DNA from: an uncultured delta proteobacterium
GTDB taxonomy: Bacteria > Desulfobacterota > BSN033 > UBA1163
Length of the DNA stretch: 64,000 nucleotides
Direction of reading: 5' to 3'
NCBI GenBank assembly: GCA_963827685.1
Contig: CAWHBU010000004.1
Location: 448,001-512,000 of the forward strand
A program made the translations under genes and the position numbers. Shown here one piece after another: positions 8,621-62,523 of the stretch (positions are counted from its first letter, which is position 1; the number at the start of each line of letters is the position of its first letter). The notes under the pieces were generated by a model. That model was given only the letters and a program-made list of their open reading frames with translations, was not told the origin of the DNA and searched no databases.

Positions 8621-8666
8621 TGTCTATCCAATAAATGGCTTACAATCAATCGAAATATGGATTAGG

Positions 8667-9377: not shown

Positions 9378-9383
9378 GTACTC

Positions 9384-9410
9384 GCCCGAACATTATTTTT
9401 ATGCTGTTAC
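9384..9410 (-). other. Cassette 5' core site / attI-like site
   Basis: Minus strand GCATAAAAATAAT-GTTCGGGC just before the ORF; GTTCGGGC is complementary (1 mismatch) to the downstream R'' GCCCTAAC. Confidence 0.5.
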
Positions 9411-9674
9411 TAGCTGTCGCTATGTTTTGCTACAAAATAAACCTATGCGTGTCCCAAATTGTCAATTTATGGTTGTAATATATACCTTTTTTGGAATTTT
9501 TGGAAGTACCGAATACAGAGATGAGCTTTCATCTACGAAGTTTTAATTTTTTGAAATGATAAAAATTGCCACCTTCGAGTTGAAACCGTGTAGGCATTTC
9601 AACTTATGATTGAATCAATCAAATTGTATTTGTTGGTTAATTTGTCAAGTGGAGGTCGAAAGGTCAACGGCTAC

Positions 9675-10307: not shown

Positions 10308-10333
10308 CTTTGTCCACGGATTTAACCAAGAAC

Positions 10334-10394
10334 TGTAGCGCCCCCATTTACTGGGGGCGCATAAAAACCGTCGGCAATAAATGCCGACGCTACA
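10334..10394. repeat. REPIN-like doublet of GTAG-type palindromes
   Basis: TGTAGCGCCCCCATTTACTGGGGGCGC ... CGTCGGCAATAAATGCCGACGCTACA: two hairpins in inverted orientation bounded by TGTAGCG/CGCTACA. Confidence 0.7.
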
Positions 10395-10397
10395 CAT

Positions 10398-40133: not shown

Positions 40134-42299
40134 ATGCAAATCATCTTTGGTCTTCTCGAAAAAATCTCTTACCACAACGAAGAAAATGACTTTGTGGTGG
40201 CAAAACTCCGTGAAAAAGAAAAGAAGGAGCTGACCACCATTATCGGTAATCTTTCAGGTGTCAACCCCGGTGAATCCCTGAAACTGACAGGTAAATGGGT
40301 ACAGAATAAGAGATTCGGCGAACAATTCCAGGTCGAGAGCTTCGAGGTCACCGTACCGGCTACCCTCCATGGGATTCAGAAATATCTCACCTCCGGGTTG
40401 ATTCAAGGCATTGGCCCGATCATGTCAGAGAGGATTGTCGAAAAATTTGGGCTTCATACCCTGGAGGTGATCGAAAAGAAACCTGAAAGGCTGTCCGAGG
40501 TGGAAGGCATCGGTCCTAAACGGATCTCCATGATCAGAAAAGCCTGGGGGGAGCAGAAAGAGATCAAAGAGATCATGATCTTTCTGCAGGGCCATGGAGT
40601 AGGCGCTGCCTATTCTGCCAAAATCTACAAACAGTACGCGGATCAATCGATTGAGATGGTGAGAGAGAATCCCTATCGTTTAGCCCACGATATATACGGG
40701 ATTGGCTTCATTACTGCAGATAAGATCGCTCAAAATCTCGGTATCGATCGCAATTCCTTGATCCGGGCCAAGGCAGGTCTTCTCTATGTCTTGAATCAGT
40801 TGACCGAAGAAGGCCATGTCTACTATCCTGAGAGTCAATTGATTCATAAGGCAAGAGAGATACTCAATGTGGATGAAGAAATCATTATCCTGGCTGTAAG
40901 GGAGCTAACCAAAGAAAAGGAGCTCTTCTTAGAAGACCTTGATCCTGATGGTAATCTCAAAGCCGTCTATCTTACCCCCTTCTATGTGGCAGAGACGGGG
41001 GTGGCTCAGAGATTAATCAATCTGAAGGAATCTCCTTCAAACATCCGGCCCATCCATCCGGAAAAGGCGATCGAATGGGTGCAGCAGAAACTGAACATAG
41101 AACTAGCCCAAAGACAGGAGGAGGCCGTTCTTCTGGCAGCCACTTCAAAGGTGTTGATTATCACCGGTGGCCCCGGGACCGGGAAGACAACACTCATCAC
41201 GGCCATATTGAGAATCTTTCAGCAATTAAAGCTGAGGATCCTTCTCGCCGCTCCCACGGGAAGGGCAGCCAAGAGAATGAATGAGGCGACGGGCTGGGAG
41301 GCAAAGACCATTCATCGCCTCCTTGAGTACTCTCCCCATAAGGGTGATTTCAAGAAAGACCAGGACGATCCTCTTGAGGCGGATGTGGTCATCATCGATG
41401 AGGCCTCCATGGTCGACACCCTTTTGATGTACCATCTCCTGAAAGCCATTCCCTCCCATGCCCACCTGATCTTGGTAGGAGATGTCGATCAGCTCCCTTC
41501 GGTTGGTCCTGGAAATGTCCTGAAGGATATCATCAGATCAGGAAAGTTTACCGTGGTGAGGCTCTTCGAGATCTTTCGCCAGGCTCAGGAGAGCATGATC
41601 GTGGTCAATGCGCACAAAGTCAATCAAGGTGAGCTCCCCGTTTTAAAGGAAATCGACAAACCCGAGAAAACCGACTTTCAATTCATCCAGGAAGAGGATC
41701 CGGAGAAGATCCTTCAAAATATCCTGGACCTCTGTAGTGAGAGGATACCCAGGGATTTCAGGTTTCATCCACTCAGAGAGATCCAGGTCCTGACACCCAT
41801 GCACAAGGGAACAATTGGTGTAACCAATCTCAACATCGAGTTACAGAAGAGACTGAACCCCGGTCAGTCAGGCATCACCCGTGGAGCATGGAGCTTCAGA
41901 GTAGGGGACAAGGTGATGCAGATCGTTAACAATTATGATAAAGATGTCTTTAACGGGGATATCGGGTGGATCTCAGAAATCAATCCGGAGGAAAGAAAGG
42001 TGACCATCGAATTCGATGGGAGACTGGTCCCTTATGACTATTCTGATCTCGATGAAGTTGTCCTGGCCTATGCCGTATCCGTCCACAAGTCCCAGGGGAG
42101 CGAGTACCCGGTCGTGATTCTTCCGGTTGTCACCCAGCACTACATGCTTCTACAGAGAAACCTGATCTACACGGGAATCACCAGAGCGAAAAAACTGGTC
42201 ATCATGATCGGAACGAAGAAGGCCCTGGCCATTGCCATAAGGAATAACAAACCCCAACGAAGGTACACTCTTCTTTCGGAGAGGTTGGCAGCGTCATGA
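40134..42299 (+). CDS. recD2: RecD2-like ATP-dependent helicase
   Basis: HhH repeats 'GIGP', 'ENPYRL', Walker A 'GGPGTGKT', 'DEASM', 'VGDVDQLPSVG', 'HKSQGSEY'. Confidence 0.95.
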   Translation: MQIIFGLLEKISYHNEENDFVVAKLREKEKKELTTIIGNLSGVNPGESLKLTGKWVQNKRFGEQFQVESFEVTVPATLHGIQKYLTSGLIQGIGPIMSERIVEKFGLHTLEVIEKKPERLSEVEGIGPKRISMIRKAWGEQKEIKEIMIFLQGHGVGAAYSAKIYKQYADQSIEMVRENPYRLAHDIYGIGFITADKIAQNLGIDRNSLIRAKAGLLYVLNQLTEEGHVYYPESQLIHKAREILNVDEEIIILAVRELTKEKELFLEDLDPDGNLKAVYLTPFYVAETGVAQRLINLKESPSNIRPIHPEKAIEWVQQKLNIELAQRQEEAVLLAATSKVLIITGGPGTGKTTLITAILRIFQQLKLRILLAAPTGRAAKRMNEATGWEAKTIHRLLEYSPHKGDFKKDQDDPLEADVVIIDEASMVDTLLMYHLLKAIPSHAHLILVGDVDQLPSVGPGNVLKDIIRSGKFTVVRLFEIFRQAQESMIVVNAHKVNQGELPVLKEIDKPEKTDFQFIQEEDPEKILQNILDLCSERIPRDFRFHPLREIQVLTPMHKGTIGVTNLNIELQKRLNPGQSGITRGAWSFRVGDKVMQIVNNYDKDVFNGDIGWISEINPEERKVTIEFDGRLVPYDYSDLDEVVLAYAVSVHKSQGSEYPVVILPVVTQHYMLLQRNLIYTGITRAKKLVIMIGTKKALAIAIRNNKPQRRYTLLSERLAAS

Positions 42300-43204
42300 G
42301 TGAGCTGAAGAACGAATTCTCCTGGTCGAAAACGAGGGATGAGGTCTTTAAAACCTGTCCCCGGCAATATTGGTTTGCCTATTATGGCTACTGGAACGGA
42401 TGGCTTGAGAACGCCCCGGAGAGAACCCGGCAGATTTACGTTCTGAAGAACCTCAAGAACAGGCAGATGTGGGCAGGAGAAAAAGTCCATGAGTGCATTC
42501 AAAGATCTCTCTACAACATCCGAAGGGGTATTAAGGTGCTTCCGGTAGATGAAATTGTCTCCATCACACTCGACCAGATGAGAGCCGAGTTTCGTTCTTC
42601 AAAGTCGAAGAACTACTGGAAGAATCCTAAATCGTGTGGCCTGCTTGAACATGAATATGAAGTGGAAGTGAGTGATGAGGAATGGAAAGACGCGGCGGGT
42701 AATGTGGAGACTTGCCTGAGAAATTTTTATGCCTCGGATATTTATGATGGCTTAAAGTCCCATCTAAAAGATGGGTGGCTTGAAGTAGAAGAATTCTCAT
42801 CCTCTTATCTGGATGGCATAAAAATCAATTTAGTCATCGACTGCGCCATAAAAGAAGGGGAGGGTGTCTATCTGTACGACTGGAAGACAGGAAAGAGCCT
42901 TTCAGAAGACCTCTCCATCCAATTAGGCTGTTATGCTCTTTATGCTATGGAGAAATGGAATGCTCCTCCTGAATCGCTGAGCATCATTGAATATAACCTC
43001 TCTTTTGACAAGTCCAACTGGTTTTCAGTGAGTCAGGAAGAGATGAAAGGCATCAAGGGTTACATCAACGGAAGCATCAAAGATATGCAGTCCCTTCTCA
43101 TTGATGTCTCGAATAACATCCCCATGGAAGAAGATCGGTTTAGTAAGATAGAGGATGAACACATCATCTCCAGATGTAATTATAAAAAAGTCTGCAGAAA
43201 ATAA
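42296..43204 (+). CDS. PD-(D/E)xK nuclease (RecB/Cas4-like), translationally coupled to recD2
   Basis: 'FSWS...CPRQY', 'VIDC', 'YDWKTG', 'QLGCY', C-terminal Cys. Confidence 0.85.
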   Translation: MSELKNEFSWSKTRDEVFKTCPRQYWFAYYGYWNGWLENAPERTRQIYVLKNLKNRQMWAGEKVHECIQRSLYNIRRGIKVLPVDEIVSITLDQMRAEFRSSKSKNYWKNPKSCGLLEHEYEVEVSDEEWKDAAGNVETCLRNFYASDIYDGLKSHLKDGWLEVEEFSSSYLDGIKINLVIDCAIKEGEGVYLYDWKTGKSLSEDLSIQLGCYALYAMEKWNAPPESLSIIEYNLSFDKSNWFSVSQEEMKGIKGYINGSIKDMQSLLIDVSNNIPMEEDRFSKIEDEHIISRCNYKKVCRK

Positions 43205-43358
43205 AAACAACAGACCCTTCACGAATCACGATTATAAGGGGCTCCTGAACAATAACTATTTCGTCAAAGATCAAGGGCTGACCCCATTCCTCTCCTAAAT
43301 AAATTTGATTTTCTGGTTTCTTTTTGGTACATTGGGTTATCCTTTATTATAAGAGGGT

Positions 43359-43574
43359 GTGAAAATGGCTAAAGAATTTACAGTGATCATAGAACAGGAT
43401 GAAGAAGGATACTATATTGCGGAAGTTCCTGAGCTTAAGGGATGCCACACGCAGGCCAAGTCTCTGGACACATTAATGGAAAGGATTAAGGAGGCCATCC
43501 AGCTCTGTTTAGAAGTGTATGGGAAGAAGTATCCGATTACCCATCTTGTTGGTGTCCAGAAAATTGCTTTATGA
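43359..43574 (+). CDS. hicB: HicB-family antitoxin
   Basis: 'VIIEQDEEGYYIAEVPELKGCHTQAKS...IKEAI'. Confidence 0.9.
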   Translation: MKMAKEFTVIIEQDEEGYYIAEVPELKGCHTQAKSLDTLMERIKEAIQLCLEVYGKKYPITHLVGVQKIAL

Positions 43575-43630
43575 GCAAGTTGCCATCTTTAACAGGAAAA
43601 GAGGTTGTCTCTTTGCTTAAAAAGAGGTGA
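43571..43630 (+). pseudogene. Truncated HicA toxin (19 codons)
   Basis: MSKLPSLTGKEVVSLLKKR*, a HicA-like N-terminus overlapping the hicB stop; no GSH motif follows. Confidence 0.7.
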
Positions 43631-43839
43631 AGAGGATTTATCATATGATTCAAAACAGAGCCTATTCTTAAGAAGAATGGGCTCTTTGTTTTTCGCCGCA
43701 GGACGATGACCCACCTGTCGCCCTTCTTCATTGTCCCGTAATCCGGGGAGTAGGAGGATACCCTCAGATCTCAGCTATTTGATTTATTCTCCTTAACGCC
43801 GTGTCTCCCCATCCCTCCATCACCCTATCTTTTTTGCTC

Positions 43840-44060
43840 TATATTTCCTTATCTCCCTAATTCCTTATTTTGCTTTTTAGATTCCGCATTCCGCAATCCC
43901 CATTTGGCACTCCTTATTTCCCTTATTTCCCTTACTTCCCTTATCTCCCCAACCCCGAGTTTCCTCATCATCTTCTTATTTTTAAATTAGCTTTTTCCAT
44001 TCCACAATCCGCACTCCGCAATCCGAAATTTAAGATGTCTCCGTGTCTCTTTTATTCCCT
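43840..44060. repeat. Low-complexity tandem tracts (9-mer TTCCCTTAT and 7-mer AATCCGC)
   Basis: Repeated TTTCCCTTA units at ~43910-43950 and ATTCCGC/AATCCGC units at ~43881 and ~44000. Confidence 0.65.
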
Positions 44061-44146
44061 TGTCCGTTTCACAAATTCACAAGGTTTAGGATATTTTTGG
44101 CCAATTCTTGACCAGTTTAATTTTCCTGCCGATAAAAAACCTTTTA

Positions 44147-44188
44147 AATCAAAAAGTTATAAACAAACACCTCTGGCACAAAAAATGC
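44147..44188 (+). promoter_or_regulatory. IHF site plus sigma54-like promoter upstream of the methylase-HerA-NurA operon
   Basis: AATCAA-AAAG-TTA (WATCAANNNNTTR) at 44147-44159; TGGCAC-N5-ATGC at 44174-44188. Confidence 0.55.
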
Positions 44189-44357
44189 TTATTGATTATT
44201 ATTGTCCTGTTTTTTGATATGGTGGACCCAATTGGAGCAACATGGGTTCTTATTCATGTCCCTTTGCCATTTTAAGCGTAGTTTTAAAAAGAATGGGTTC
44301 TTGTCTTGTTAATGTTATGAAAACAATGAACCAACATAAAAATAAGTTGGTGGGCTG

Positions 44358-45185
44358 ATGAATCAAGCAAAGAATATTTTCCTGAGATACCCCGGGGGTA
44401 AAGGGCGAATGCTTAATTTCCTGATCCCTCGGCTCATTTCAGCAACCAAGAGTACATATCGCCTCGTTGAACCATTTGCGGGAGGGTGTGCTGTTTTCTT
44501 TGGGCTGAATCCCGAACGAGCACTCCTGTCAGATATTAATCCAGAACTTATCGATTTATATCGTGGCATTCGTCGTTATCCAATCGAAGTCTGGAAAATT
44601 TTCAGCAGCTTCCCATCAAGTAAACGCGCCTATTACAGGATTCGTAACTGGAAGCAGGAAAATCTTGATTTGCCAACTCGTGCTGCAAGGACGCTTTATC
44701 TAAACAGGACCTGTTTTAAGGGAATGTGGCGGCATAATGCAGATGGAGAATTCAATGTTGGCTATGGAGGACAGCAAAGGAGGTGGGTAATTAGTAAGGA
44801 AACGTTGCTTTCTGTTTCAAAAAGGCTAAGAAATGCTTCTATTAAATGCAACGACTTTGAAGAAGTTATTGATGCCTGTAGACAAGATGATTTCATTTTT
44901 GTTGATCCACCTTACTGTCCAGGGGAGCGCGATATGGTTCATGACCATTTCAGGTTTGGTAAATTCACTCTTAATGACCATAAACGGTTGGCAATAACGT
45001 TGAGAAAAGCATCGGCAAGGCGTATTCGTTGGGCCCTTACAACCTCAGACCATCCTGACATAGTTTCTCTTTTCCACGGGTATAATATTTTGGCTATTCC
45101 AAGAGGGACTGGTAGGACAATTGGCGCGTTAACAAACGATTCAGGTGAGGTTCTTATTCGTAATTACAAGGGGGTATCCCAATGA
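44358..45185 (+). CDS. Dam/D12-class N6-adenine DNA methyltransferase
   Basis: 'RYPGGK', 'EPFAGG', 'SDINPELI', 'YLNRTCFKG', 'FVDPPY'. Confidence 0.92.
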   Translation: MNQAKNIFLRYPGGKGRMLNFLIPRLISATKSTYRLVEPFAGGCAVFFGLNPERALLSDINPELIDLYRGIRRYPIEVWKIFSSFPSSKRAYYRIRNWKQENLDLPTRAARTLYLNRTCFKGMWRHNADGEFNVGYGGQQRRWVISKETLLSVSKRLRNASIKCNDFEEVIDACRQDDFIFVDPPYCPGERDMVHDHFRFGKFTLNDHKRLAITLRKASARRIRWALTTSDHPDIVSLFHGYNILAIPRGTGRTIGALTNDSGEVLIRNYKGVSQ

Positions 45186-47140
45186 AAGATTTTTTCGAAA
45201 AAGCTGCAATGCAAAACCATCCGCTAAGGGTTTTACAAACATTTCTTGAGTTCGAGGGAGCTAGCGAAAAAGCAAAGAAATATGATGATATGCGCTTCGT
45301 AGGGTATGTACTTGATATTGGATACGATACGGTTACGATCATTACTTCCGATCCATTCAAGGTAGCGGTCGGCGGGGTGCCTCGGAACTCACTGCTCATA
45401 ATGGTTCCGGTGAATTCCGACACATTACCTCCACATTTTACATTATTAAGAGTATTAGAAGCGGCTCCAACCCCTTTATCTAAAGAAGTTCAACAGACCT
45501 ACTTTGAATTACAGAAAAAGTCTATGCCAGAGCTTGATGTTTTCATACAGAGCGAACTGCAATGGGGAGCTCTCAAGACTGGTGTTCTTGGGATGTTTTA
45601 TCCGCACCCAGAGGAAATAGATCATATTGAGTTTTCTGGTGATCTAAACAATTTTGTTAGCGCCCACAAATATCGAGTTTACGCCCCTGATGACTCTTTG
45701 TTGAAACTGATTACGAACTCGATGGTCCCGAGCGAAAATCGCTTTGCCATCGGAAACCTAAGGTTAACTGAATGCAGGCTTCCTTTGCCAAATAAGCCTC
45801 GACCTCAGGTTGAAGTCTTTGTTTCAACAAAGGACTTTATGGGTGCGAGAACAGCGATGTTTGGCAAAACACGGCTTGGCAAAAGTAATGTTGTCAAACT
45901 TATTGCACAGAGCTTGATCGAGACGACTGCAAAGAGTAAGAATGTTGGTCAAATCATATTTGACATCAACGGCGAATATGCTAATGACAATCCTCAAGAT
46001 AATAGCCGCTCTCTTGCAAGTGGATATTCAGATCGTTGTGTCGTATATGCACTGACTAAAAAAGAGAAGACAGAATCAAAACCATTACGTCTGGATTTTT
46101 ATGAACACCCTGAGAGTTCTCATAAGATAATTGCCACATTGTTAAAGGAAGCAGGCAAAGACGTTTCTAACTATATTACTAGCTTCCTTTCTGTAGATAT
46201 TCCGTCGATTGAATTGCTCAAGGAATTGCCGCCGAATGAAGAAAAAAGATCTAGAAGAAAAATACTGATGTATTGGTCCATTCTATTCAGAGCGGGATAC
46301 GTAGCTGATATAGGAAAGCTCAGGAAGTCGATAAGGTTTGATCCCCAAATTAATGAGGCTTCCAGAAAAATAATCTACGGCGTGAGTGATATAAGCCAAT
46401 GCCCTGTGATCAATTCATTGGATGCTCTAGCAACTGAGTTTGAAAAATGCGCAGAAGCAGATCGGAAATCAAAATTGAAATCATCTACGGGCAAAGACCT
46501 TTTCGATGCGGATGACCTCGCTATCCTCGGATTCCTTAAACCTGTTTCAACAGCGAGTACTGGGCCAGGCATTATTCAAGGTTTCCGGAAGTACCATGAT
46601 TCTAAAGCGGGGGACTTTGTGGACGAGATCATCAAGCTTTTAGGTGGTGGACAAACGGTTATACTTGACCTTGGGAATGCACCACCAGAAGTAATGGAAT
46701 ACTTTTCAGTTTATCTTTCGAGAGCCATATTTCACCAGCAAGTCGAAAAATTCTCGAACAACGAACTAGGTAATCATTTCGTTCAACTTTACTTCGAAGA
46801 AGCACATAACTTGTTCCCTGCTAGTGGGCAAGGCGAGGTAGATATCTATCGCCGCATCGCAAAAGAAGGCGCAAAGTATCATATTGGGATGGTTTACTCA
46901 ACCCAGTCTATAACGACCATTAACAAAGACCTGCTTGCCCAGACAGAGAATTTTTTTATTGCCCATCTTTCATCTCAAGATGAGGTAAACGCACTTGCTA
47001 AAGTCAATGTTGCCTACGAAAGCTTAAAAGATGACATTCTTCAGGCAAAAACTGTGGGCTACATAAGGATGCTTACACGCTCTCATCGATTTGTTGTGTC
47101 GGTACAAGCGAGGAAATTTATTCCACCTGGCGCTGCATAA
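45182..47140 (+). CDS. HerA/FtsK-superfamily ATPase (HAS barrel + DUF87-like)
   Basis: Walker A 'FGKTRLGKS', 'IFDINGEY', Walker B 'LYFEEAHNL', 'AKEGAKY', 'YSTQ'. Confidence 0.88.
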   Translation: MKDFFEKAAMQNHPLRVLQTFLEFEGASEKAKKYDDMRFVGYVLDIGYDTVTIITSDPFKVAVGGVPRNSLLIMVPVNSDTLPPHFTLLRVLEAAPTPLSKEVQQTYFELQKKSMPELDVFIQSELQWGALKTGVLGMFYPHPEEIDHIEFSGDLNNFVSAHKYRVYAPDDSLLKLITNSMVPSENRFAIGNLRLTECRLPLPNKPRPQVEVFVSTKDFMGARTAMFGKTRLGKSNVVKLIAQSLIETTAKSKNVGQIIFDINGEYANDNPQDNSRSLASGYSDRCVVYALTKKEKTESKPLRLDFYEHPESSHKIIATLLKEAGKDVSNYITSFLSVDIPSIELLKELPPNEEKRSRRKILMYWSILFRAGYVADIGKLRKSIRFDPQINEASRKIIYGVSDISQCPVINSLDALATEFEKCAEADRKSKLKSSTGKDLFDADDLAILGFLKPVSTASTGPGIIQGFRKYHDSKAGDFVDEIIKLLGGGQTVILDLGNAPPEVMEYFSVYLSRAIFHQQVEKFSNNELGNHFVQLYFEEAHNLFPASGQGEVDIYRRIAKEGAKYHIGMVYSTQSITTINKDLLAQTENFFIAHLSSQDEVNALAKVNVAYESLKDDILQAKTVGYIRMLTRSHRFVVSVQARKFIPPGAA

Positions 47141-47153
47141 GGAGGAATCTGAA

Positions 47154-48467
47154 GTGCCTTACAAGGCCGGAGACCGATTACCGGCAGAACATGCGAGCCG
47201 CTTAGGGCACCTTGACGTGCTCAAAAGTGAGTTGGTGAAAAAACTTTGTGCAAGTTTTGAGGATTCTGGCCCACCCACTATACCCCCTCAGAGTTTTTGG
47301 GAAGCCATCCCGTCGATAGGACAACCCTTACCTCTGGTATTTGGCGTTGACGGTTCCATGCAGGTTATCGAATCGGAGAGTCCCCCGTATAAAGCACTGG
47401 TGTTCATTAAAACTTCGCTTCTAAGGGTTGATCAGGTGGCCCTTTCCTTAATCGATGAGGAATCACCTCATCCGTTTGCTTTGCGAGACATATTGGCCAA
47501 TTCTGCTTTGTATCACGCCACAGTATTGCCATTAAGGCATGTCAGTATTCCAGGAATGTCTTTATACGATGCGGTTCGCCAGATAATATACGAGTCGGTA
47601 AAAGATGCTTCCTTGAATGGTGAACCCCTAGAAACGCTGAAGTGGATTGCTTACGAAAAGTGGGATGGTAAGAAGAAAAGTCTTCCACCATTTGAGTGCC
47701 CTCACTGTGAAGGGAAAGATGCTGCAACCTTACCCTACGATTCCGATGAAGGGAACTGCCCGACTTGTAACGGAAAGTTGTTTCTTACGGACATGCTGGG
47801 CTTTCATCAAGAGATGGCCCCAGATTCCGCCCCCGATGTTGTCGCAACGGCATACATGAGTATCCATGAAACATTATTGTTGTTTACAGGGATTAGATAC
47901 TTCTGGAATAGAAACAAGGAATTACTTAAAAACTGTCTGTTTGTGAAAGATGGACCTCTCTCAATTCGAGCACAATATTCAAAACTCGTGAATCCAATAA
48001 GAAGATTCTTAGCTTTTTCAAGAGATCATGGGTATCCAGTACACCTCGTTGGGCAAGAGAAAACCGGCGCATTTGCTGACCATTTGCAACTTATCGGGAA
48101 GAACGCGCCTGCCGAATCGCTATTTATTCCCAATAATAAGTATATTAAAGAATATATTCAGCATAGGCCAGACAGAGGAGACCCCTACGGAAAATATACA
48201 AATTACGGGGCTAAGGTTTTCGTCAGAATTAGTGACTATCATCAAACCGTATTAAACGTTCCTACTGGAGAGTACATTGAAAACCCCATACTTTCCAATC
48301 TCATCGGCGCGGGAAGAATCTTTTCCACAATACCGAAGATTTTGAGTAGCCGATTTGAAGGCGGCCTTTTACCCGTTGAACTGGCTCACGGCGTGGCGTC
48401 ATTATCAACTTACCCTTCAGCACAGATTCTCAAAATATTTTCAGAGGCGAAAACAATTAATCCCTAA
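47154..48467 (+). CDS. NurA-family (RNase H fold) nuclease with inserted Zn finger
   Basis: 'FGVDGS', 'FVKDGPL', 'GQEKTG', 'PVELAH'; CPHC...CPTC; GTG start after AAGGAGGA. Confidence 0.82.
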   Translation: MPYKAGDRLPAEHASRLGHLDVLKSELVKKLCASFEDSGPPTIPPQSFWEAIPSIGQPLPLVFGVDGSMQVIESESPPYKALVFIKTSLLRVDQVALSLIDEESPHPFALRDILANSALYHATVLPLRHVSIPGMSLYDAVRQIIYESVKDASLNGEPLETLKWIAYEKWDGKKKSLPPFECPHCEGKDAATLPYDSDEGNCPTCNGKLFLTDMLGFHQEMAPDSAPDVVATAYMSIHETLLLFTGIRYFWNRNKELLKNCLFVKDGPLSIRAQYSKLVNPIRRFLAFSRDHGYPVHLVGQEKTGAFADHLQLIGKNAPAESLFIPNNKYIKEYIQHRPDRGDPYGKYTNYGAKVFVRISDYHQTVLNVPTGEYIENPILSNLIGAGRIFSTIPKILSSRFEGGLLPVELAHGVASLSTYPSAQILKIFSEAKTINP

Positions 48468-48689: not shown

Positions 48690-49259
48690 ATGCATGGAAA
48701 AAATCAAAATATCGAGCAAGACCAAAATGAGAACAATAAAGACAAAGGATATAGAAACATTAAAGAAACCAAAGTCATGCTGGAGGAATGGCAGACAGTG
48801 GTAGAAACTCAAATTCATTTCAACGAGATGATTATGCGTGCAAGAACGACAGGAGTGAGTGTTGTTATGGCTGTATATGGAGCTGCAGCCCTTGCTTATG
48901 GGCAATATCCATATAGGTTTTACAACGCCTTTGGGACTGAATTTCATGTTAGCACAGCAATAATTTTCTTTGGACTTTTGCTGCTCATAAGTATTTTTCT
49001 CATCGATTATTGCTACTACTACCGTCTATTAATAGGGGCGGTAGAACGGGGGGAGGAAATAGACAAAGCCTATCGTGATCGGATTATAGATGGAACGAAA
49101 CTTTTTGGTTTGACAACTGCAATATCAAACAGAGTAAGCCGAAATCGCGCAAGGATTTGCCTTTTTTTCTTTTATGGGACCCCGCTCTTTGTTGGTATAG
49201 TTTCCCTAACTTATCTGTCGTGTTTTTACCGTCCTTATTCATTTGGATTTCGCATTTGA
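48690..49259 (+). CDS. Hypothetical membrane protein with about 3 TM helices
   Basis: Good RBS (GGAGG); three hydrophobic segments. Confidence 0.75.
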   Translation: MHGKNQNIEQDQNENNKDKGYRNIKETKVMLEEWQTVVETQIHFNEMIMRARTTGVSVVMAVYGAAALAYGQYPYRFYNAFGTEFHVSTAIIFFGLLLLISIFLIDYCYYYRLLIGAVERGEEIDKAYRDRIIDGTKLFGLTTAISNRVSRNRARICLFFFYGTPLFVGIVSLTYLSCFYRPYSFGFRI

Positions 49260-49915
49260 AGTTTAAACTTGTGGTTTTCGATCTTGACGGAGTTCTTGTA
49301 AATGAGCCAAGTGCATGGTGGACATTGCATCACGCCTTTGGTACTTTCGAGGCATCGAAAGAAAATTTGCGTGCTTATGAAGCAGGCATTATCGATTACC
49401 CTGAATTCATGAGGAGAGATATACATCTCTGGGGTATACGCAGTATCAAGGAGGTAGAAACCGTGCTACACAATTTTACTCTCTCCGAAGGCGCCTTGGA
49501 AGTCTGCGATATTCTGCGCCAACGAGGATATCAAATTGCTATCCTGAGTGCAGGGATTGACATCATCGCTCGTGCTGTTTCCGGGAAACTGGGAATAGAA
49601 TACTGGGTTGCTAACGGTCTGAAAGTAGATGCAAAAGGTCTATTAACAGGTGAGGGGATATTCAGAGTTGATCTTAAAGAAAAGGAAAGAGCTCTCAAGA
49701 AACTTGTTGGGCCCCTAGGAATAGCATTCCCTGATGTAGCAGCCATCGGTGATAGCAAGCATGACGTTTCCTTTATGCAGGCTTGTGGGGTTGGAATTGC
49801 TCTAACTAGATGCGATATTTGTGAAGAATCTGAGCCTTGGGTGAAAGCTTTTCACAGGATAATTTGCCTTGCTGACCTTCCGGGGACTTTGACGAAAATT
49901 GAGGGACCGCAATGA
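49256..49915 (+). CDS. HAD-IB phosphoserine-phosphatase-like hydrolase
   Basis: 'VFDLDGVL', 'ILSAG', 'AIGDSKHD'; TTG start overlaps the upstream TGA. Confidence 0.85.
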   Translation: MKFKLVVFDLDGVLVNEPSAWWTLHHAFGTFEASKENLRAYEAGIIDYPEFMRRDIHLWGIRSIKEVETVLHNFTLSEGALEVCDILRQRGYQIAILSAGIDIIARAVSGKLGIEYWVANGLKVDAKGLLTGEGIFRVDLKEKERALKKLVGPLGIAFPDVAAIGDSKHDVSFMQACGVGIALTRCDICEESEPWVKAFHRIICLADLPGTLTKIEGPQ

Positions 49916-49929
49916 ATGGACCCAATGAA

Positions 49930-50200
49930 TGGGGTCAATTTTTCATCGTTGATAAGCCATATAAGAATATGCTGAAGCCCTGAAATGGTAAGGCCGCTTC
50001 GGAGGAGAAAGGAGTTCTTCGTCAGATGGGGATGGAGTTACATTACCGGGTAGGAGGACTGAGAGGCCGGGAAATAGGAGAGCTTTTCCGAGGGGGTGAC
50101 AGATCGGTGACCCAGGAGTGAAAGAGATTGAGGGATCGGCTAAGCGATGATCGGAATACTCAGAATCTTGGAAAATATAACGATTGAAGAATTGGCCCCC
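49930..50200 (+). pseudogene. Degenerate remnant resembling the C-terminal HTH of a REP-associated (Y1) transposase
   Basis: Broken reading 'GVLRQM..ME..YRVGGLRGREIGELF...RLRDRL'; bounded by TGGGGTCAATT and AATTGGCCCC. Confidence 0.4.
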
Positions 50201-50291: not shown

Positions 50292-51119
50292 CTATGAACA
50301 CACCTCCTTTGCAGGTTCCTTTAAGTATTGCCCCAAAATCGATTTTGAAAACAATCCATTCGAAAAAGAGACATACGTTATTAGATGCGACTCCTCTGGA
50401 ATTATAACAAATCTATGTAATGGCTTATAGGATTTGCTCATTAGTCGCTCTATTAACAGCTTTCCTGGTTTCACCCCACCTTGGATGAAATCCCTTATGC
50501 CGTCAAACTGTGCTTTAAGCAATTGGTTACCAAGCCAGAAATATAGAAAGTTCATTGCTATTGAGGTGGGAACCCTATCATCCATCAAGTTTCCCTTTAA
50601 TTCAGGAATTATCTTTTCAATTTCGACTTTTTTTATCGACAGTTCTCCGGACAGTTCAGTTTTGACGTTGAAAGGCATTTCGCTGTAAATTTCAACCAAT
50701 TCTTTCCCTAATTTGTTTCTCTTTGACATGCCGTTCAGTATTCTTGTCGCCTCGGTTGGATCACAGATCACCGAACCATTATCCAATTCCTTGGCAGCTA
50801 CTTTGAACTTCCCTTTCTTGAAAAACATATGTACAAAACGACCCAGCTGATCCCTTCCAAGAAATTTTCTTTTTTCTCTGATTTTATCTGCTAACTCAGG
50901 GATCTCCTTGCTTACATTTTCGATAGCAAGACTTATGGATGGATCGTCCCTAAGCTGAGAAATCAATCTTGCCCCTCCTACTTGATTGTTACACTTTGTG
51001 CAAAGCAAGCAGGCCTGTGTAAATCCTCCCACAGATTCAGGGAAAAGATGCTCCCAGCTATCAGGAGTATTTCTATTGCAAAAAAGGCAACGATCCGGCA
51101 GTCCAATTTTGAGTCTCAC
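50292..51119 (-). CDS. HNH endonuclease domain protein; C-terminus possibly frameshifted (would extend to 50212)
   Basis: 'CLFC...SWEHLFPESVGG...LCTKCNN'. Confidence 0.82.
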   Translation of the reverse strand: MRLKIGLPDRCLFCNRNTPDSWEHLFPESVGGFTQACLLCTKCNNQVGGARLISQLRDDPSISLAIENVSKEIPELADKIREKRKFLGRDQLGRFVHMFFKKGKFKVAAKELDNGSVICDPTEATRILNGMSKRNKLGKELVEIYSEMPFNVKTELSGELSIKKVEIEKIIPELKGNLMDDRVPTSIAMNFLYFWLGNQLLKAQFDGIRDFIQGGVKPGKLLIERLMSKSYKPLHRFVIIPEESHLITYVSFSNGLFSKSILGQYLKEPAKEVCS

Positions 51120-51456: not shown

Positions 51457-51981
51457 CTATAAGTATCCCAAATTTGTCAAACGATACCTCATCGTGTCTT
51501 CACTAACATTAAATCGCTCGGCCAGATCCTTAATTGAGACTATATTGTTTTCGATACACCTGAGCAGCAACTTTTCTGGAAGAAGTAGCTCAGCGGCAAA
51601 ATGGTTTGCCTCTACCTCATCTAAACCTGACACGTTATCAGCCCGTAAATAAATTTTATCTGGGTCGTTCTTATCGTAATGTAGTACTTCAGCTGAATGA
51701 AGTATATAATGCCCAATTTCATGGGCGATTGTAAACCTGCGTCTGTGTTCATGATGGTTTGAATTGACACCCAGGAATAATTTACCATCTTTTTTGAAAA
51801 AAACCCCCGATATGTTATCAGAGAAAGAATGTTCAATAACCTTGACTTCAAGAGCATCTGTAATTTGTTCCAAGTCTGTTGAAAAGTCCTTAGACCTTCT
51901 TATATTTATATTATCTGGATTAAACCCGCATTGAGAAAGCAATTTTTTTGCTTGTCTTATAGCAAACTTTTTCCCTTTCAT
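51457..51981 (-). CDS. ImmA/IrrE-family zinc metallopeptidase (CapP-like)
   Basis: 'RRRFTIAHEIGH', 'EVEANHFAAELLLP', 'LAERFNVS'. Confidence 0.92.
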   Translation of the reverse strand: MKGKKFAIRQAKKLLSQCGFNPDNINIRRSKDFSTDLEQITDALEVKVIEHSFSDNISGVFFKKDGKLFLGVNSNHHEHRRRFTIAHEIGHYILHSAEVLHYDKNDPDKIYLRADNVSGLDEVEANHFAAELLLPEKLLLRCIENNIVSIKDLAERFNVSEDTMRYRLTNLGYL

Positions 51982-51992
51982 ATTTCACCTCC

Positions 51993-52319
51993 TTACTCTG
52001 CATTTTCAATAAAATCCTTAATTTCTTTTTTCTCAATAGTTTTCAGATCGTTGGCCTGATCTAATAGACCATGAGGTTGAGATCTTGATTTGATTTCCCT
52101 TAAGGAGGGCAAAATATCTCCTGCTTCAATTTCAAGAAAGTCAGCTATTTTATAAAGATCAGAGATATAGATAGCTTGATTACTGTTTTCATAATTGGCA
52201 ATTGAGGCTCTGGAAACACCGATAGCTTTTCCTAACTCTTCTTGAGTAAGGCTTTTGTTTTCACGAAATTGTCTGATTCTCTTGCCTATCTCTATGTAGA
52301 GAAGATCATCGTCAATCAT
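51993..52319 (-). CDS. XRE-family HTH regulator (CapH-like)
   Basis: 'IGKRIRQFR...LTQEELGKAIGVSRASIANYE'. Confidence 0.92.
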   Translation of the reverse strand: MIDDDLLYIEIGKRIRQFRENKSLTQEELGKAIGVSRASIANYENSNQAIYISDLYKIADFLEIEAGDILPSLREIKSRSQPHGLLDQANDLKTIEKKEIKDFIENAE

Positions 52320-52331
52320 ATTGTCCTGCTA

Positions 52332-52361
52332 ATACTACTAATTTCATAAACAACTTGTCAA
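52332..52361 (-). promoter_or_regulatory. Sigma70-type promoter for the HTH-peptidase pair
   Basis: Minus strand TTGACA-N18-TAGTAT. Confidence 0.55.
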
Positions 52362-52480
52362 CATTTATTTTAACCCATTTCTGGGAAAAAACCAACTTCT
52401 TTTAATCGTACTAACATATTAATATCGTTAATTATTTTTTCAAAACATGAGGCCACCTCCTCAAAAAAATGTTTTCAGTA

Positions 52481-52509
52481 TTGACATTTGTATGAATGTT
52501 TGTTAAACT
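52481..52509 (+). promoter_or_regulatory. Sigma70-type promoter for the CBASS operon
   Basis: TTGACA-N17-TAAACT. Confidence 0.65.
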
Positions 52510-52555
52510 GGAACAGAAATTAGTTTAATTGTATAATCCAAATGGAGGAAGAGAA

Positions 52556-52657
52556 ATGAAAAATGAAGCTGGGGCAAGGGGCCGCCCCTCTCCCCTGAAA
52601 CAGGGGATGAGGCAAATACAGCCCAAGCGAAACCGGAGTCGCAAATCGTTCAATTGA
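52556..52657 (+). CDS. Possible 33-aa basic leader ORF
   Basis: GGAGG RBS then MKNEAGARGRPSPLKQGMRQIQPKRNRSRKSFN*. Confidence 0.35.
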   Translation: MKNEAGARGRPSPLKQGMRQIQPKRNRSRKSFN

Positions 52658-52699
52658 TGCTTCAATGGGCTAAAGGGCATGGACGGGTAGGGAATCATA

Positions 52700-53218
52700 A
52701 TGAACTTGGATGATGATCAAAAATTACAGGTTTTACTGGCTGACCTCCAAGAGCGGTACAGTGCTTCCCACATGATACGGGAACGAAGCGTAAAGTTTAC
52801 TCTATGGATTTCAGGAATGGCCATCGGTCTTGGCTGGCTGCTAATAAGTCAGAAGGCTCTTACCCTTCCTCAACAGGTTGCCCTGACACTTCTCATTCTG
52901 GCTCTTTTTGCTGGTACACTCTATTTCTTGATGGGTCTTAGAAGGGGTTTTCAAAAAAACCGTGAGGCCATGATCAATTGCGAATCTGCCTTGGGTATGC
53001 ACGAATCAGGAATCTATTTGAAAGACGTACCCCTTTTGCCCATAGAATACAGGAATACAAATCGTAAATGGAGCGACCATTTCCTTACATTATATATGTG
53101 GTTGATTCTAGTAGCTGTATCATTACTTATCCTTACATGGACCTGTCCCGAGCCGGCAAAAAGCCTTTCACCAAAGGTTAAAAGTCAACAATTGATAGGA
53201 GGTAAAGACAATGTCTGA
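52700..53218 (+). CDS. Putative CBASS membrane effector with about 3 TM helices
   Basis: TM hairpin, polar helix, third TM; overlaps the CD-NTase start. Confidence 0.75.
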   Translation: MNLDDDQKLQVLLADLQERYSASHMIRERSVKFTLWISGMAIGLGWLLISQKALTLPQQVALTLLILALFAGTLYFLMGLRRGFQKNREAMINCESALGMHESGIYLKDVPLLPIEYRNTNRKWSDHFLTLYMWLILVAVSLLILTWTCPEPAKSLSPKVKSQQLIGGKDNV

Positions 53219-54194
53219 TCTAAAGAGTGAATTCAAAACATTTCATGATCGAATTGTGCTAACCCCTGGGAAAAAGGAAGCTCTCAGAAAGGGGCGGAAG
53301 GCTATTCGAGATCGCATTCGAAATTATTTCCGCGAAGAATTAAAGGTGAAATTACCCAAATTTCAGGGGCAGGGCTCCTTTGTAATGGAAACGACAGTAA
53401 ATCCATTGGATGGCGAATTCGACATTGATGACGGTGTTTACCTTCAGCATTTGGATGAAAAAGATGATAGCAAATGGCCCAAACCTGAGACCGTGCATAA
53501 CTGGCTACTTAAAGCCACTGAAGGACATACGAACGAGAAACCCAAAGACAAACGCACTTGCGTTCGCGTTCGGTATGCGGGTCAATACCATGTGGACTTG
53601 CCTTCTTATACAAAACTTGATGGCGACTATTTACTGGCTGAAAAGGGAAATAAGGGCTGGCATCGGAGTGATCCCCTCGCCCTAACCCTCTGGTTCGAGA
53701 ACCATGTAAAGGCTCACGGTGAACAACTTCGCAGGTTAGTTCGATACCTCAAAGCATGGGGGGACTTCCAAACCGGCAGGAGAGGGACGATGCCAAGTGG
53801 ATTGATCTTAACAGTGCTAGCGACCCAATATTTTAGTGCGGATGAAAGGGAGGATGTAGCTTTAGGGAATTTAGCACAGGCCATTTCCAATACTGTTCAT
53901 TCGGTTTTCTGTGTCTATAATCCCGTTGATACCGAAGAAGAACTTACCGCCCACCTGACCGATGAACAAAAGGCACGATTCCAGGAATCCATTTCGGAGT
54001 TGGCCTCTGACGCTGCCAAGGCCACCGACACCGATGACAGTCAGGAGGCATCTAGACTCTGGAGAAGGCAACTCGGTGACCGCTTTCCCTCAATCGAGAC
54101 GGATATGACATTCGGTGACAGGCAGAAAGCCGTCAGTAGTCTTGCTGGAGGATACATGACAAGTAATCCATCAAAACCCTGGGCGATCTCCTGA
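53211..54194 (+). CDS. CBASS cGAS/DncV-like nucleotidyltransferase (CD-NTase)
   Basis: 'QGSF...T...P..GEFDIDDGVY', 'KRTCVRV', 'YHVDLP', 'SDP', 'LVRYLKAW', 'NPV'. Confidence 0.93.
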   Translation: MSDLKSEFKTFHDRIVLTPGKKEALRKGRKAIRDRIRNYFREELKVKLPKFQGQGSFVMETTVNPLDGEFDIDDGVYLQHLDEKDDSKWPKPETVHNWLLKATEGHTNEKPKDKRTCVRVRYAGQYHVDLPSYTKLDGDYLLAEKGNKGWHRSDPLALTLWFENHVKAHGEQLRRLVRYLKAWGDFQTGRRGTMPSGLILTVLATQYFSADEREDVALGNLAQAISNTVHSVFCVYNPVDTEEELTAHLTDEQKARFQESISELASDAAKATDTDDSQEASRLWRRQLGDRFPSIETDMTFGDRQKAVSSLAGGYMTSNPSKPWAIS

Positions 54195-54931
54195 TGACAC
54201 AATGGTATCAAAGGAACCGTGAACTATTTTGCAAGGAACGGAATGCTGTGGTATCAACCTGTCCGTTAATGCGAATGGTAATAGCACCGTTGGGGTTTAG
54301 AATAAACAGAGTATCCTCACTGAAACATGAATCCGCTATTGCCCATGGGACATATTTGCTCAGAATACCTGATTCCAATAAACAGATTGAGTATGGGATT
54401 GTTCTTGTTTTTCCAAACAATTATCCTAAAGAAGCCCCGTTAATGTTCTGTAATGACCCGAAACTGCCCATCGGAGATATCGACCGCCATATAATGAATG
54501 ATGGTATGGCTTGCTTGGGAGTTCATGCCGAAATATATATGCGGTGGCAACCTTCTCTCAATTTTATTAATTTCCTTGAACAGTTCGTTGCGCCTTTCCT
54601 GGCTTGGCAGGCCTATTATGATGTATATCAAAAGCCACCCTTCTGGGGAGAACGATCACATTATGGAAAGGGCATAATTCAATTCTATGCAGAACTACTT
54701 GGTAGAGAACCAGATCCTTCAGTTGCGAATTTTATCCACCTATTGGCTAAAAAGAACTACCCCAAAGGCCACACACTTTGCCCGTGTAATTCAGGATTGA
54801 AATTGAGAAATTGCCACAAAGAGTTTGTGGATGAGATGCGTAAGCGCATTCCATGGCAGGAGGTAGAAAAAGATCTAAACGCCCTATTACTGAGCAATCA
54901 CAGGCTTAAGGAACGTAATCAAGTTATTTAA
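54194..54931 (+). CDS. Prokaryotic E2 (UBC-fold) protein with C-terminal SEC-C motif
   Basis: 'FPNNYPKEAP', 'RHIMNDGMACLG' (catalytic Cys context), 'GERSH', 'CPCNSGLKLRNCH'. Confidence 0.82.
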   Translation: MTQWYQRNRELFCKERNAVVSTCPLMRMVIAPLGFRINRVSSLKHESAIAHGTYLLRIPDSNKQIEYGIVLVFPNNYPKEAPLMFCNDPKLPIGDIDRHIMNDGMACLGVHAEIYMRWQPSLNFINFLEQFVAPFLAWQAYYDVYQKPPFWGERSHYGKGIIQFYAELLGREPDPSVANFIHLLAKKNYPKGHTLCPCNSGLKLRNCHKEFVDEMRKRIPWQEVEKDLNALLLSNHRLKERNQVI

Positions 54932-56025: not shown

Positions 56026-56456
56026 GCAATTCAGGGGGGCGTCCAGAAAATTATAAGAATCTTATAAGGGATTTAGGTCATCCGCAAAAAAGCTGGCCCA
56101 CCCAATTGTCGAATGCGGATTGCGGAATGGGGAATTCAAAATATTAGAAACAGCATGGATCAGAGCGCAAAGGGCATGGTGTAAACCTCAAAGTTGAAAG
56201 CTCAAAGTCCTCGTTCACTCATTTTATCTCGCCAGCAGAACAAAAAATCAGTTGACATTGTGATATAAACGGATTATGTGAGGCTTTGGGGTCAAAGCTA
56301 CATTATACACTTTGCTTGATACAGAACGAGAGGGCTCTGGGCTTAGAAATTAAGGTGAGTCGGGTCTCGGGTCGGACCCAGTGAACTGCTTGATCGAATT
56401 AATGAACTATCGGGACGTTCGTGCAGAGCGTGCTTGGAAGTATCAGGAATCACGTG

Positions 56457-56560
56457 GCATCCATAAAAAAGCTGGCCCATTCGATTGCAGAATGCGGATT
56501 TCGGATTGCGGACTGCGAATGCCGAATTCAAAACTAAAAACAGCATAGCGCATAGCGTCC
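56457..56560 (+). repeat. ~100-bp direct repeat (copy 1) flanking the AbrB-PIN module
   Basis: CATCCATAAAAAAGCTGGCCCATTCGATTGCAGAATGCG...AAAACTAAAAACAGCAT...AGCGTC; second copy at 57374-57505. Confidence 0.8.
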
Positions 56561-57373: not shown

Positions 57374-57505
57374 GTCATCCATAAAAAAGTTGGCCCATTC
57401 GATTGCAGAATGCGCCTGCCTGCGCGAAGCCGCTCCGGCGGAGGCAGGGATTTCGGATTGCTGATTGCGGAATTTAAAACTAAAAAGAGCATGGAGCACA
57501 GCGTC
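57374..57505 (+). repeat. ~100-bp direct repeat (copy 2) carrying a 34-bp palindromic insertion at 57415-57448
   Basis: Aligns to 56457-56560 except for CCTGCCTGCGCGAAGCCGCTCCGGCGGAGGCAGG. Confidence 0.8.
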
Positions 57506-62230: not shown

Positions 62231-62523
62231 CGGCGAGACTGGGACGTAGTTGAAAATTAACACTTTTCCCCCTTCTGCATTACATTTGTGAGTGGGTATC
62301 ATCCATAAAAAGGTTGGCCCTGCAAACAAGAGATCGCAAAGAGCATGGCGCATAGAGCATAGCGCATCACAGACATTTATATGAGGAGATAAGGAGATAG
62401 TATAATAATAGATTGCGGATTGTGGAATGCAAATTGTAAAAACGAATTTCAAAGTCATTGGGACATTTGGGATATTCCATAAGTAAGTCCTGGTAGAACT
62501 CCGAAGACAACTTAAAAATTGCG

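Follow-up and report, generated by a model that had tools for sequence, protein, structure and literature searches.

A mobile cassette of a DNA methylase, a HerA-like ATPase and a NurA-fold nuclease as a proposed methylation counterpart of TdpABC

Among described systems, the closest to the locus considered here is TdpABC, reportedly presented by An et al. (2025, Nat Chem Biol) as a phosphorothioate-based defence of thermophiles, with TdpAB structures 8wet, 8wfd and 8y1k. The locus itself is a cassette of three same-strand genes, encoding a DNA methylase, a HerA-like ATPase and a NurA-fold nuclease, at positions 44358-48467 of the window, which is the whole 64,000-nucleotide stretch that was analysed (assembly GCA_963827685.1, contig CAWHBU010000004.1, forward-strand positions 448,001 to 512,000, from an uncultured delta proteobacterium). 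One article describes tdp as the third phosphorothioate system, in which tdpC alone makes the mark, with the consensus GpsATC (PMC12914056). A further point of reference is an operon of the Thermus integrative and conjugative element (ICE) ICETh1, which in strain HB27 comprises, according to two articles, four genes for the type IIG restriction enzyme Tth111II/TthHB27I, the NurA-like TTC1878, TdtA and the pfam01555 methylase TTC1880 (PMC5365140, PMC7767461). This is the only studied operon combining a NurA-like protein, a HerA-like ATPase and a methylase that was found in the literature, and no description of a methylase-HerA-NurA defence system was found in a full-text search whose scope excluded supplements and An et al. 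2025.

The three genes form a real, conserved and mobile system. The trio is read here as a self-contained, mobile, ATP-dependent system resembling restriction-modification (R-M), the methylation counterpart of the phosphorothioate-based TdpABC, with a probability of roughly 0.68. The Dam-family methylase would place an N6-adenine mark on host DNA, with GATC as the probable site; HerA would form a hexameric ring threading duplex DNA, and the nuclease would dock on HerA as a dimer and cut the translocated strands, both steps being proposed from homology with TdpAB and HerA-NurA; and the methyl mark would prevent loading, translocation or cutting, with unmarked DNA being degraded. Binding between motor and nuclease is expected from the same homology, and we infer that methylation blocks the attack and that the function is anti-phage or anti-plasmid. 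A sequence-only reading of this DNA had already proposed that the trio acts in a restriction-like way, with self DNA marked by the methylase, and this remains the best-supported explanation given the mobility of the triad, the exchange of methylase class and position, and the standing of TdpA and TdpB, which make up the restriction side of a defence based on DNA modification, as the closest relatives.

The three genes and their products

The methylase gene (44358-45185, forward strand) encodes a Dam-family D12 class alpha N6-adenine DNA methyltransferase of 275 residues, and its stop codon overlaps as ATGA the start of the gene for a TdpA-like, HerA/FtsK-type ring ATPase of 652 residues (45182-47140, forward strand). 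The nuclease open reading frame (ORF) was listed from a TTG at 47091, and the HerA stop codon TAA occupies 47138-47140; the most likely start is the GTG at 47154, because it lies 13 nt past the HerA stop and behind GGAGG, a ribosome-binding site read from the sequence at 47141-47145 (forward strand, 8 nt before the GTG). The third gene then spans 47154-48467 on the forward strand and encodes a TdpB-like nuclease of 437 residues with a predicted NurA fold and an inserted Cys4 zinc ribbon. The tight, co-oriented packing, the ATGA overlap and the spacing of the nuclease start can all be read directly in the sequence, as had been claimed. Promoter and terminator scans gave signal no higher than shuffled controls.

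The methylase matched Pfam PF02086 (MethyltransfD12; 1.2e-40, 140.3 bits against a cut-off of 22), TIGR00571 dam (4.2e-54, 184 bits against a cut-off of 114.85) and the PADLOC model MTase_II PDLC03294 (2.1e-60), the first two of which bear out its earlier description as a Dam-type enzyme. The FAGG (residues 40-43) and DPPY (residues 183-186) motifs are intact as read from the translation. The best match in the PDB was DpnM (2dpm, 1.2e-33), followed by E. coli Dam. Both are GATC enzymes, and since these are the closest solved relatives, the target of the methylase is probably GATC.

The HerA protein matched Pfam DUF87 (PF01935; 2e-14, 54.6 bits against a cut-off of 23.2), and no membrane or FtsK-alpha domain was detected, Pfam giving DUF87 alone. 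Its Walker A motif (residues 228-235, GKTRLGKS; 45863-45886, forward strand) is invariant in the HerA alignment A4 at G228, T230, R231, G233, K234 and S235, as is the Walker B motif (residues 539-542, EEAH; 46796-46807, forward strand), and between the two lies a hypervariable, swapped segment (residues ~310-490; 46109-46651, forward strand). The best sequence match in the PDB was TdpA (8wet, 2.4e-28), with the Sir2- or DUF4297-associated HerAs at ~1e-10 and S. solfataricus HerA at 1e-3. The alignment with TdpA consists of two stretches, one around Walker A and one over the last 155 residues, with ~45% identity by eye, and the Walker A motif, the Walker B motif (EEAH in TdpA also) and a YSTQS block align between the two proteins. 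Scores against dedicated HerA models were lower, at 1e-21 or weaker for those of PADLOC and at 49.6 and 48.6 bits against cut-offs of 800 and 850 for NCBIfam HerA_antiphage.

The product of the third gene has, in its structural model, a NurA fold with a zinc ribbon. Searches of Pfam, PADLOC, NCBIfam and the PDB (phmmer) gave no sequence match, including none to Pfam NurA (PF09376) at E<=0.1. The protein retrieved 1474 proteins at E<=1e-3 from a database clustered at 90% identity (577 representatives of 50%-identity clusters), and its sequence homologues in the database search were all labelled 'hypothetical'; no fused forms were found among the longer proteins, which is weak evidence. In an alignment of 64 nuclease relatives (A1), near-invariant positions were D66-G67 (within V65-D66-G67-S68, VDGS), D213, E239, D266-G267 (within KDGPL) and E302-K303, the acidic ones being candidate catalytic residues and the Pfam NurA profile beginning at the DGS strand. 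The four cysteines C182, C185, C202 and C205 (47697-47768, forward strand) are likewise near-invariant and gave weak matches to zinc-ribbon profiles.

An AlphaFold2 model built on A1 was confident (mean predicted local distance difference test score 91.9, predicted template modelling score 0.89), and its first Foldseek match in the PDB was TdpB (8wfd_G, from the TdpAB-AMPPNP-DNA complex; E 5.7e-10, TMq 0.46, TMt 0.54, 16% identity). The NurA proteins of P. furiosus, D. radiodurans, T. kodakarensis, T. maritima (TM1739) and S. solfataricus came next with probabilities of 1.00 or 0.99 (chains 3taz, 3tai, 7f6d_G, 9x1n_G, 1zup and 2ygk, E 1.6e-7 to 2.8e-5), and endonuclease V and Argonaute PIWI ranked much lower, in keeping with an RNase H-like fold. 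Pfam NurA matched six of the 64 family members (best 3.4e-8), of which P0245 was the sole one above the gathering score (26 bits against a cut-off of 21), and P0229 was aligned over the whole NurA profile. Because relatives match Pfam NurA and the window protein does not, membership of the NurA family is transitive rather than direct; the Atlas neighbours of an 83%-identical homologue were also NurA-bearing clusters. The earlier label of a zinc-finger NurA is thus upheld by fold (AlphaFold2, Foldseek and the conserved Cys4) and not by sequence profiles.

Linkage, transfer and the exchanged HerA segment

A scan of one genome per species identified 33 loci with close relatives of the nuclease (46-82% identity), in hosts belonging to the Bacteroidota, Planctomycetota, Nitrospirota, Chloroflexota, Spirochaetota, Acidobacteriota, Cyanobacteriota, Verrucomicrobiota, Bacillota, Bdellovibrionota, among other groups. 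By tblastn, genes for the methylase, the HerA protein and the nuclease share this order and orientation in 25 of the 26 loci with at least 3 kb of upstream sequence, and this collinearity indicates that the arrangement is more than chance; the exception, L014, held two nuclease gene fragments only. In six of the seven loci truncated at the end of a contig, the HerA C-terminus was still visible up to that point. The HerA gene is frameshifted in L018, and L022 carries an insertion of ~70 residues. Co-occurrence with the methylase, which the sequence-only reading had proposed to score, is the rule in these loci, and the cassette is accessory. Queries with 12 window neighbours found no homologue in the related loci, bar one weak helix-turn-helix (HTH) match in L017, and no Pfam family occurred more than three times among 138 flanking ORFs (at most three per side per triad). 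These flanks included housekeeping genes (CobU, HypD, GcpE) and, by PADLOC, scattered defence genes at one or two ORFs each (KwaA/KwaB, GajB, SoFic, DRT reverse transcriptase, MkoA, PDC-S02 and mad3). As the flanking genes are not conserved, the cassette is self-contained.

More distant relatives were sought by a profile search of 401 genomes of the window's phylum, of which 4 matched, and 401 genomes of the phylum of L031, of which 10 matched. Six of eight distant loci held an intact HerA-nuclease pair with an adjacent DNA methylase, either of the D12 class (three triads, one with the gene upstream and co-oriented and two with it downstream and convergent) or of the unrelated PF01555 N6_N4 class (L042, L063 and L064, downstream and co-oriented). 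One of the other two had truncated methylase and HerA genes, and in the last an IS110 transposase interrupts the nuclease gene, and neither a HerA nor a methylase gene lies close by. In L062 (genome G449), a gene for a UvrD-family helicase of 878 residues (8370-11006) follows the triad directly on the same strand and may be an added module.

Among annotated records, full-length nuclease relatives with 24-26% identity were found on five plasmids and in two Vibrio temperate-phage records, and three of the four plasmid or phage records examined have an adjacent methylase. A haloarchaeal Halorarius plasmid has the order DUF87, nuclease, methylase; Deferribacter pDF308 carries a methylase, a DUF87 gene split by IS200/IS605 and NurA; and a temperate Vibrio phage carries an integrase, HerA, the nuclease and a convergent D12 methylase, followed by an excisionase. 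On the nuclease tree, a quick maximum-likelihood reconstruction in which several distant rows have long branches, the methylase class changes at least twice, and the topology conflicts with taxonomy, the nearest relative of the window nuclease coming from a Bacteroidales metagenome-assembled genome (MAG) and the Fischerella copy grouping with Saprospiraceae. Scans of metagenomes with P0214 and of viral contigs with the window nuclease returned no match, nor did a Foldseek search of the nuclease model against BFVD at E<=1e-3 (0 matches). A constant 'R' module, exchangeable non-homologous 'M' genes, rapid decay and promiscuous transfer together make up the pattern of R-M.

This distribution bears on whether the pair could be an end-resection repair machine, as in archaea and Deinococcus, merely lying beside an orphan Dam methylase. 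The NurA fold and HerA family are those of the repair machines, and the PGAP annotation labels distant relatives 'DNA double-strand break repair nuclease NurA'. However, Mre11 and Rad50 are not adjacent among the ORFs scanned, as the sequence-only reading had observed, and the absence of the cassette from 14 same-genus and 40 related genomes searched indicates that it is not a core repair function. The conflict of the nuclease phylogeny with taxonomy, the co-inheritance of the methylase in 25 of 26 loci and its replacement by another class in relatives, the frequency of decayed copies (IS110 insertion, frameshift, bare fragments) and the far weaker score of canonical HerA relative to TdpA all point the same way, leaving a repair role as the least credible of the explanations and one of very small likelihood.

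Carriage on mobile elements also invites comparison with ICETh1 tdtA, under which the NurA-like protein and the pump would process, export or import DNA in a transjugation-like manner, with the methylase as an accessory or as part of an unrelated R-M pair. In T. thermophilus HB27, donation requires TdtA, the NurA-like protein and the restriction enzyme, and loss of the methylase has a minor effect (PMC5365140, PMC7767461), and the cassette family similarly rides on plasmids, a temperate phage and loci rich in insertion sequences. Against such a role, no integrase, relaxase or conjugation gene recurs beside the 25 triads, and none lies in the window between 43.2 and 56 kb; the gene order differs, the ICETh1 NurA-like gene being upstream of the ATPase; the HerA protein has no detected membrane or FtsK-alpha domain; and the methylase, which a donation module does not need, is the most constant partner here. 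Given that no transfer genes accompany the cassette, DNA mobilisation is considered highly improbable, if somewhat less so than repair.

The central segment of HerA evolves differently from the remainder of the cassette. Within the close clade, residues ~310-490 have a mean pairwise column identity of 0.28-0.51 against 0.6-0.95 in the flanks, and the variation is mosaic rather than gradual: identity profiles drop sharply near residue 310 and recover near 490, with unrelated inserts in otherwise near-identical cassettes. Between L026 and L030, for instance, distances are 0.09 for the HerA core, 0.12 for the methylase and 0.10 for the nuclease, and 0.63 for the segment; the corresponding core and segment distances are 0.11 and 0.55 between the window and L001, and 0.15 and 0.64 between L015 and L016. 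DNA identity is 45-55% over ~600 nt of the segment compared with 70-93% in its flanks, and single-linkage clustering at a distance below 0.35 separates 18 segment types among 24 proteins. The segment type of the window was found in 177 database proteins, and among the 120 listed all are HerAs of the cassette family, with 50-85% identity and mostly ~650 residues, some entries being shorter.

Methylase distances track those of the nuclease (r 0.92) and of the HerA core (r 0.90); those of the segment they do not follow (r 0.30; partial r -0.24), and the segment showed no co-variation with any 30-residue window of the methylase or nuclease (partial r -0.25 to 0.03). The segment is thus exchanged by recombination, independently of the methylase. 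This lack of co-variation argues against a role of the insert as a methyl reader and suggests instead that it is probably an arms-race or partner-recognition surface. A possible, although tentative and somewhat doubtful, extension is that the family represents an unnamed, widespread class of ATP-dependent R-M assembled from repair-type parts, a HerA ring and NurA, with interchangeable methylases; this class would be a sister of TdpABC that relies on base methylation, with the swapped HerA domain as a second specificity layer. Independently of the methyl mark, this layer could set, for instance, the invader proteins or DNA structures that permit or block its activity.

The same segment could alternatively serve abortive infection: it would sense a phage cue and so set off indiscriminate DNA degradation by HerA-NurA, and the methylase would be a regulator acting epigenetically, a safeguard in the manner of an antitoxin, or a decoy. 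The hypervariability of this recombining segment, which varies independently of the methylase, is reminiscent of a sensor or arms-race surface, and Sir2-HerA and DUF4297-HerA reportedly act by assembly-dependent activation; in addition, L023 keeps HerA and the nuclease beside a truncated methylase, and one relative, from Tolypothrix, has none. However, a near-universal and active-looking methylase, with its S-adenosylmethionine-binding and DPPY motifs intact, is the signature of modification-based self-protection, its replacement in relatives is by a non-homologous DNA methylase, and TdpAB, the most similar machine of solved structure, has a DNA-modifying enzyme as its partner. Abortive infection is consequently regarded as unlikely, though less so than either mobilisation or repair.

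Several observations weigh against the R-M-like interpretation itself. TdpA is said, in the TdpAB study, to sense the DNA backbone, and the sensing of a methyl group on a base by a ring translocase is a difficulty for the proposal. The link of the nuclease to TdpB is at the level of fold alone, with 16% identity, and PDB profile searches with A1 and with A5, an alignment of 7 distant sequences, missed TdpB and NurA and returned zinc-ribbon noise only. The L023 locus combines an intact HerA and nuclease with a methylase reduced to a 161-residue C-terminal piece by N-terminal truncation, which argues against obligatory lethality without a methylase in cis, unless another methylase protects in trans. 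The plasmid of Tolypothrix sp. PCC 7910 (L084; NZ_CP050441.1, 52067-58456) carries HTH, DUF87 and NurA genes and one for an 816-residue exonuclease domain-containing protein, with no amino-methylase within 5 kb by annotation, tblastn or motif scan, and may be a methylase-free variant of the cassette family. GATC is not avoided in the host genome (observed-to-expected ratio 0.95, 6.2 sites per kb), a result that is uninformative, and the cassette contains 15 such sites (3.6 per kb). The flanks of related loci are often housekeeping genes with only scattered defence neighbours, a setting that does not speak for enrichment in defence islands, and the published role of the related ICETh1 operon is DNA donation rather than defence (PMC5365140, PMC7767461).

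The host genome and the surrounding variable region

Within its own lineage the cassette is isolated in its distribution: the nuclease was found in one of 41 related genomes, that of the window, and all 14 genomes searched from the same genus lacked a match, among them six with completeness of 90% or more and contamination of 5% or less. Upstream lie RecD2 (40134-42299), as the sequence-only reading had stated, and a translationally coupled PD-(D/E)XK nuclease (42296-43204; PADLOC Aga_Cas4-like_Nuc, 3.6e-21), a pair that is core to the genus: 13 of its 14 other genomes carry it, with DNA identities of 73-94%. Synteny with four relatives ends at 43198-43206, the end of the PD-(D/E)XK gene, and a search for the cassette DNA in four same-genus genomes gave no match. 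The right flank resumes near 60022, the spacing between flanks being ~17 kb here and ~56 kb in the same-genus genome G010. From this break in synteny between core flanks, it follows that the cassette, a cyclic oligonucleotide-based antiphage signalling system (CBASS) operon and other small genes fill a region that is hypervariable at the genus level. In G010, the last 93 nt of the PD-(D/E)XK gene recur ~25 kb downstream (C2:2030551-2030643, 91% identity), which suggests that the 3' end of this gene is an insertion hot spot with a duplicated target.

The G+C content is 0.39-0.46 across 43-56 kb compared with ~0.46-0.53 upstream, and the earlier description of an AT-richer island with CBASS, HNH and toxin-antitoxin genes is confirmed by this drop and by the CBASS, HNH_5 and HicB genes. 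The defence-island context belongs to this genome and not to the cassette, which elsewhere has housekeeping neighbours as often as defence ones. Downstream of the cassette are a HAD hydrolase (49157-49915), an HNH_5 protein (50292-51119, reverse strand) and an ImmA/IrrE-HTH pair (51457-52319) consisting of CapP-like (51457-51981, reverse strand; PADLOC 5e-30) and CapH-like (51993-52319, reverse strand; PADLOC 1.4e-8) genes. These are followed by a CBASS CD-NTase cyclase (53211-54194; PADLOC 4e-104) and its E2 partner (54194-54931; PADLOC 1.4e-39), and the whole of 51457-54931 corresponds to a type II-like CBASS with a CD-NTase and an E2-only partner, of which the divergent CapP-like and CapH-like genes would be regulators. 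A 172-residue ORF overlapping the cyclase start (52700-53218) has no family match and is a candidate CBASS effector.

Between the PD-(D/E)XK gene and the methylase, HicB (43359-43574) is directly followed by a short ORF (43571-43630) whose start, translated by eye, is MSKLPSLTGKEVVSLLKKR; as this resembles a leftover N-terminal piece of a HicA toxin, the hicAB pair has apparently decayed. A terminator-like hairpin with a 13-bp stem lies beyond this remnant (43657-43685). Short CGCAATCCGCA-type repeats occur at 43700-44200, 56079-56140 and 56458-56519, and an element of ~60-140 nt lies just 5' of the methylase (~44041-44201). The latter recurs in same-genus variable regions (G010 C2 at 2006002, 2018960, 2020407 and 2029759; G004; G012), often directly after the PD-(D/E)XK gene, and both it and the repeats may mark the limits of the variable region or take part in its recombination. 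A 115-residue ORF overlapping the repeats (43870-44217) is probably spurious. Sequences of ~36-70 nt resembling repetitive extragenic palindromes or miniature inverted-repeat transposable elements, present in dozens of copies across the genus genomes, were also observed at 57413-57449 (matching many contigs at 92-97%), 62295-62364 and 49925-50200. No tRNA was found in the window and no direct repeats were found flanking the cassette.

The host encodes two further HerA-family genes (G000 C3:509437-510294 and C8:32575-33336), the further HerA-family ORFs being of 633 and 594 residues with DUF87 matches of 1.8e-40 and 2e-30, and two further D12 methylases (C4:812243-812908 and C3:541180-541890). 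These genes may belong to other HerA-based defence or R-M systems. No further NurA was detectable with Pfam in the host genome.

Comparison with known systems

No system model of PADLOC 2.0 fits the triad, in which the methylase is recognised as generic Type II, HerA weakly and the nuclease not at all, and censuses of defence systems may consequently miss the cassette. The sequence-only reading had known of no named system with this exact composition, and this holds for PADLOC 2.0 and the literature searched, with the qualification that TdpABC is a close analogue and that the ICETh1 operon has been studied. Weak and partial PADLOC matches to DndH and PD-Lambda-5_B were rejected, and membership of MADS, the methylation-associated defence system defined by the set mad1-mad8, was ruled out, the cassette having three genes and its HerA a lone weak match to mad8 (1.5e-8).

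If the cassette does restrict unmethylated DNA, it would represent an R-M architecture outside Types I-IV, built on a ring translocase of the HerA type and a NurA nuclease of RNase H-like fold, and would indicate that the TdpAB machine can be combined with ordinary adenine methylation and does not depend on phosphorothioate marks. The cassette family is common, being found in bacteria, archaea, plasmids and temperate phage. It raises the mechanistic question of a ring motor that encircles DNA reading a methyl group in the major groove, and the diversification of such machines could be approached through the swapped HerA domain. What would be new here, as suggested by sequence comparison and modelling, is TdpAB-like restriction coupled to methylation, with a swapped domain in the motor.

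Classical R-M systems share some of these properties. The methylase is of the Dam family and closest to DpnM, as in the Type II GATC systems (DpnII/MboI), and modification-based self-protection is presumed in the cassette as in these; with Type I and III systems it shares a predicted ATP-dependent, translocating nuclease. However, the cassette has neither a PD-(D/E)XK or HNH endonuclease nor a superfamily 2 motor, and has in their place a HerA ring and an RNase H-like NurA fold.

Sir2-HerA and DUF4297-HerA (the 'Her' systems of Gao) are likewise compact, mobile defence operons combining a HerA-family motor with an effector. Their effector is Sir2 (an NADase) or the DUF4297 nuclease rather than NurA, and they have no modification gene. 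Membership of the cassette in these systems was ruled out by the NurA-fold partner, by HerA_antiphage scores far below the cut-offs and by PADLOC HerA scores below the cut-offs.

The HerA-NurA pairs of archaea and Deinococcus have the same two folds, with a NurA dimer presumed to sit on a HerA hexamer (7f6d, 9x1l-n, 3tai, 2ygk, 4d2i). Unlike the cassette, the repair pair belongs to the core genome, lies in a cluster with mre11-rad50 and comes without a methylase, and the similarity is marginal, at 1e-3 to 2e-4 for HerA and by fold alone for the nuclease.

The ICETh1 tdtA operon also has a NurA-like nuclease, a HerA/FtsK-type ATPase and a methylase co-transcribed on a mobile element, and the methylase family, PF01555, is that of the distant relatives L042, L063 and L064. 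It differs, in a comparison made by description only, in including a type IIG restriction enzyme, in placing the nuclease upstream of the ATPase and in lying inside an ICE with an integrase.

TdpABC is alike in setting a HerA-type hexameric ATPase and a NurA-fold nuclease beside a single DNA-modifying enzyme, and by this analogy the cassette probably works in the same way. The GpsATC consensus reported for Tdp and the GATC expected of a Dam-family methylase are suggestive of a shared core. The modifier of the cassette is, however, an N6-adenine methylase (D12, or N6_N4 in relatives) and not TdpC, from which the mark is expected to be on the base rather than the backbone. TdpC was not found in the cassette, where the D12 methylase is the only modification gene, and was not searched for elsewhere in the genome; given its absence, the cassette is not a member of TdpABC. 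The two systems differ further in the nuclease (437 residues with a Cys4 ribbon, compared with 358 for TdpB, and with no sequence match between them), in the motor (652 residues with a swapped central segment, compared with 586 for TdpA) and in their hosts, which for the cassette are mostly MAG lineages of mesophilic type rather than extreme thermophiles.

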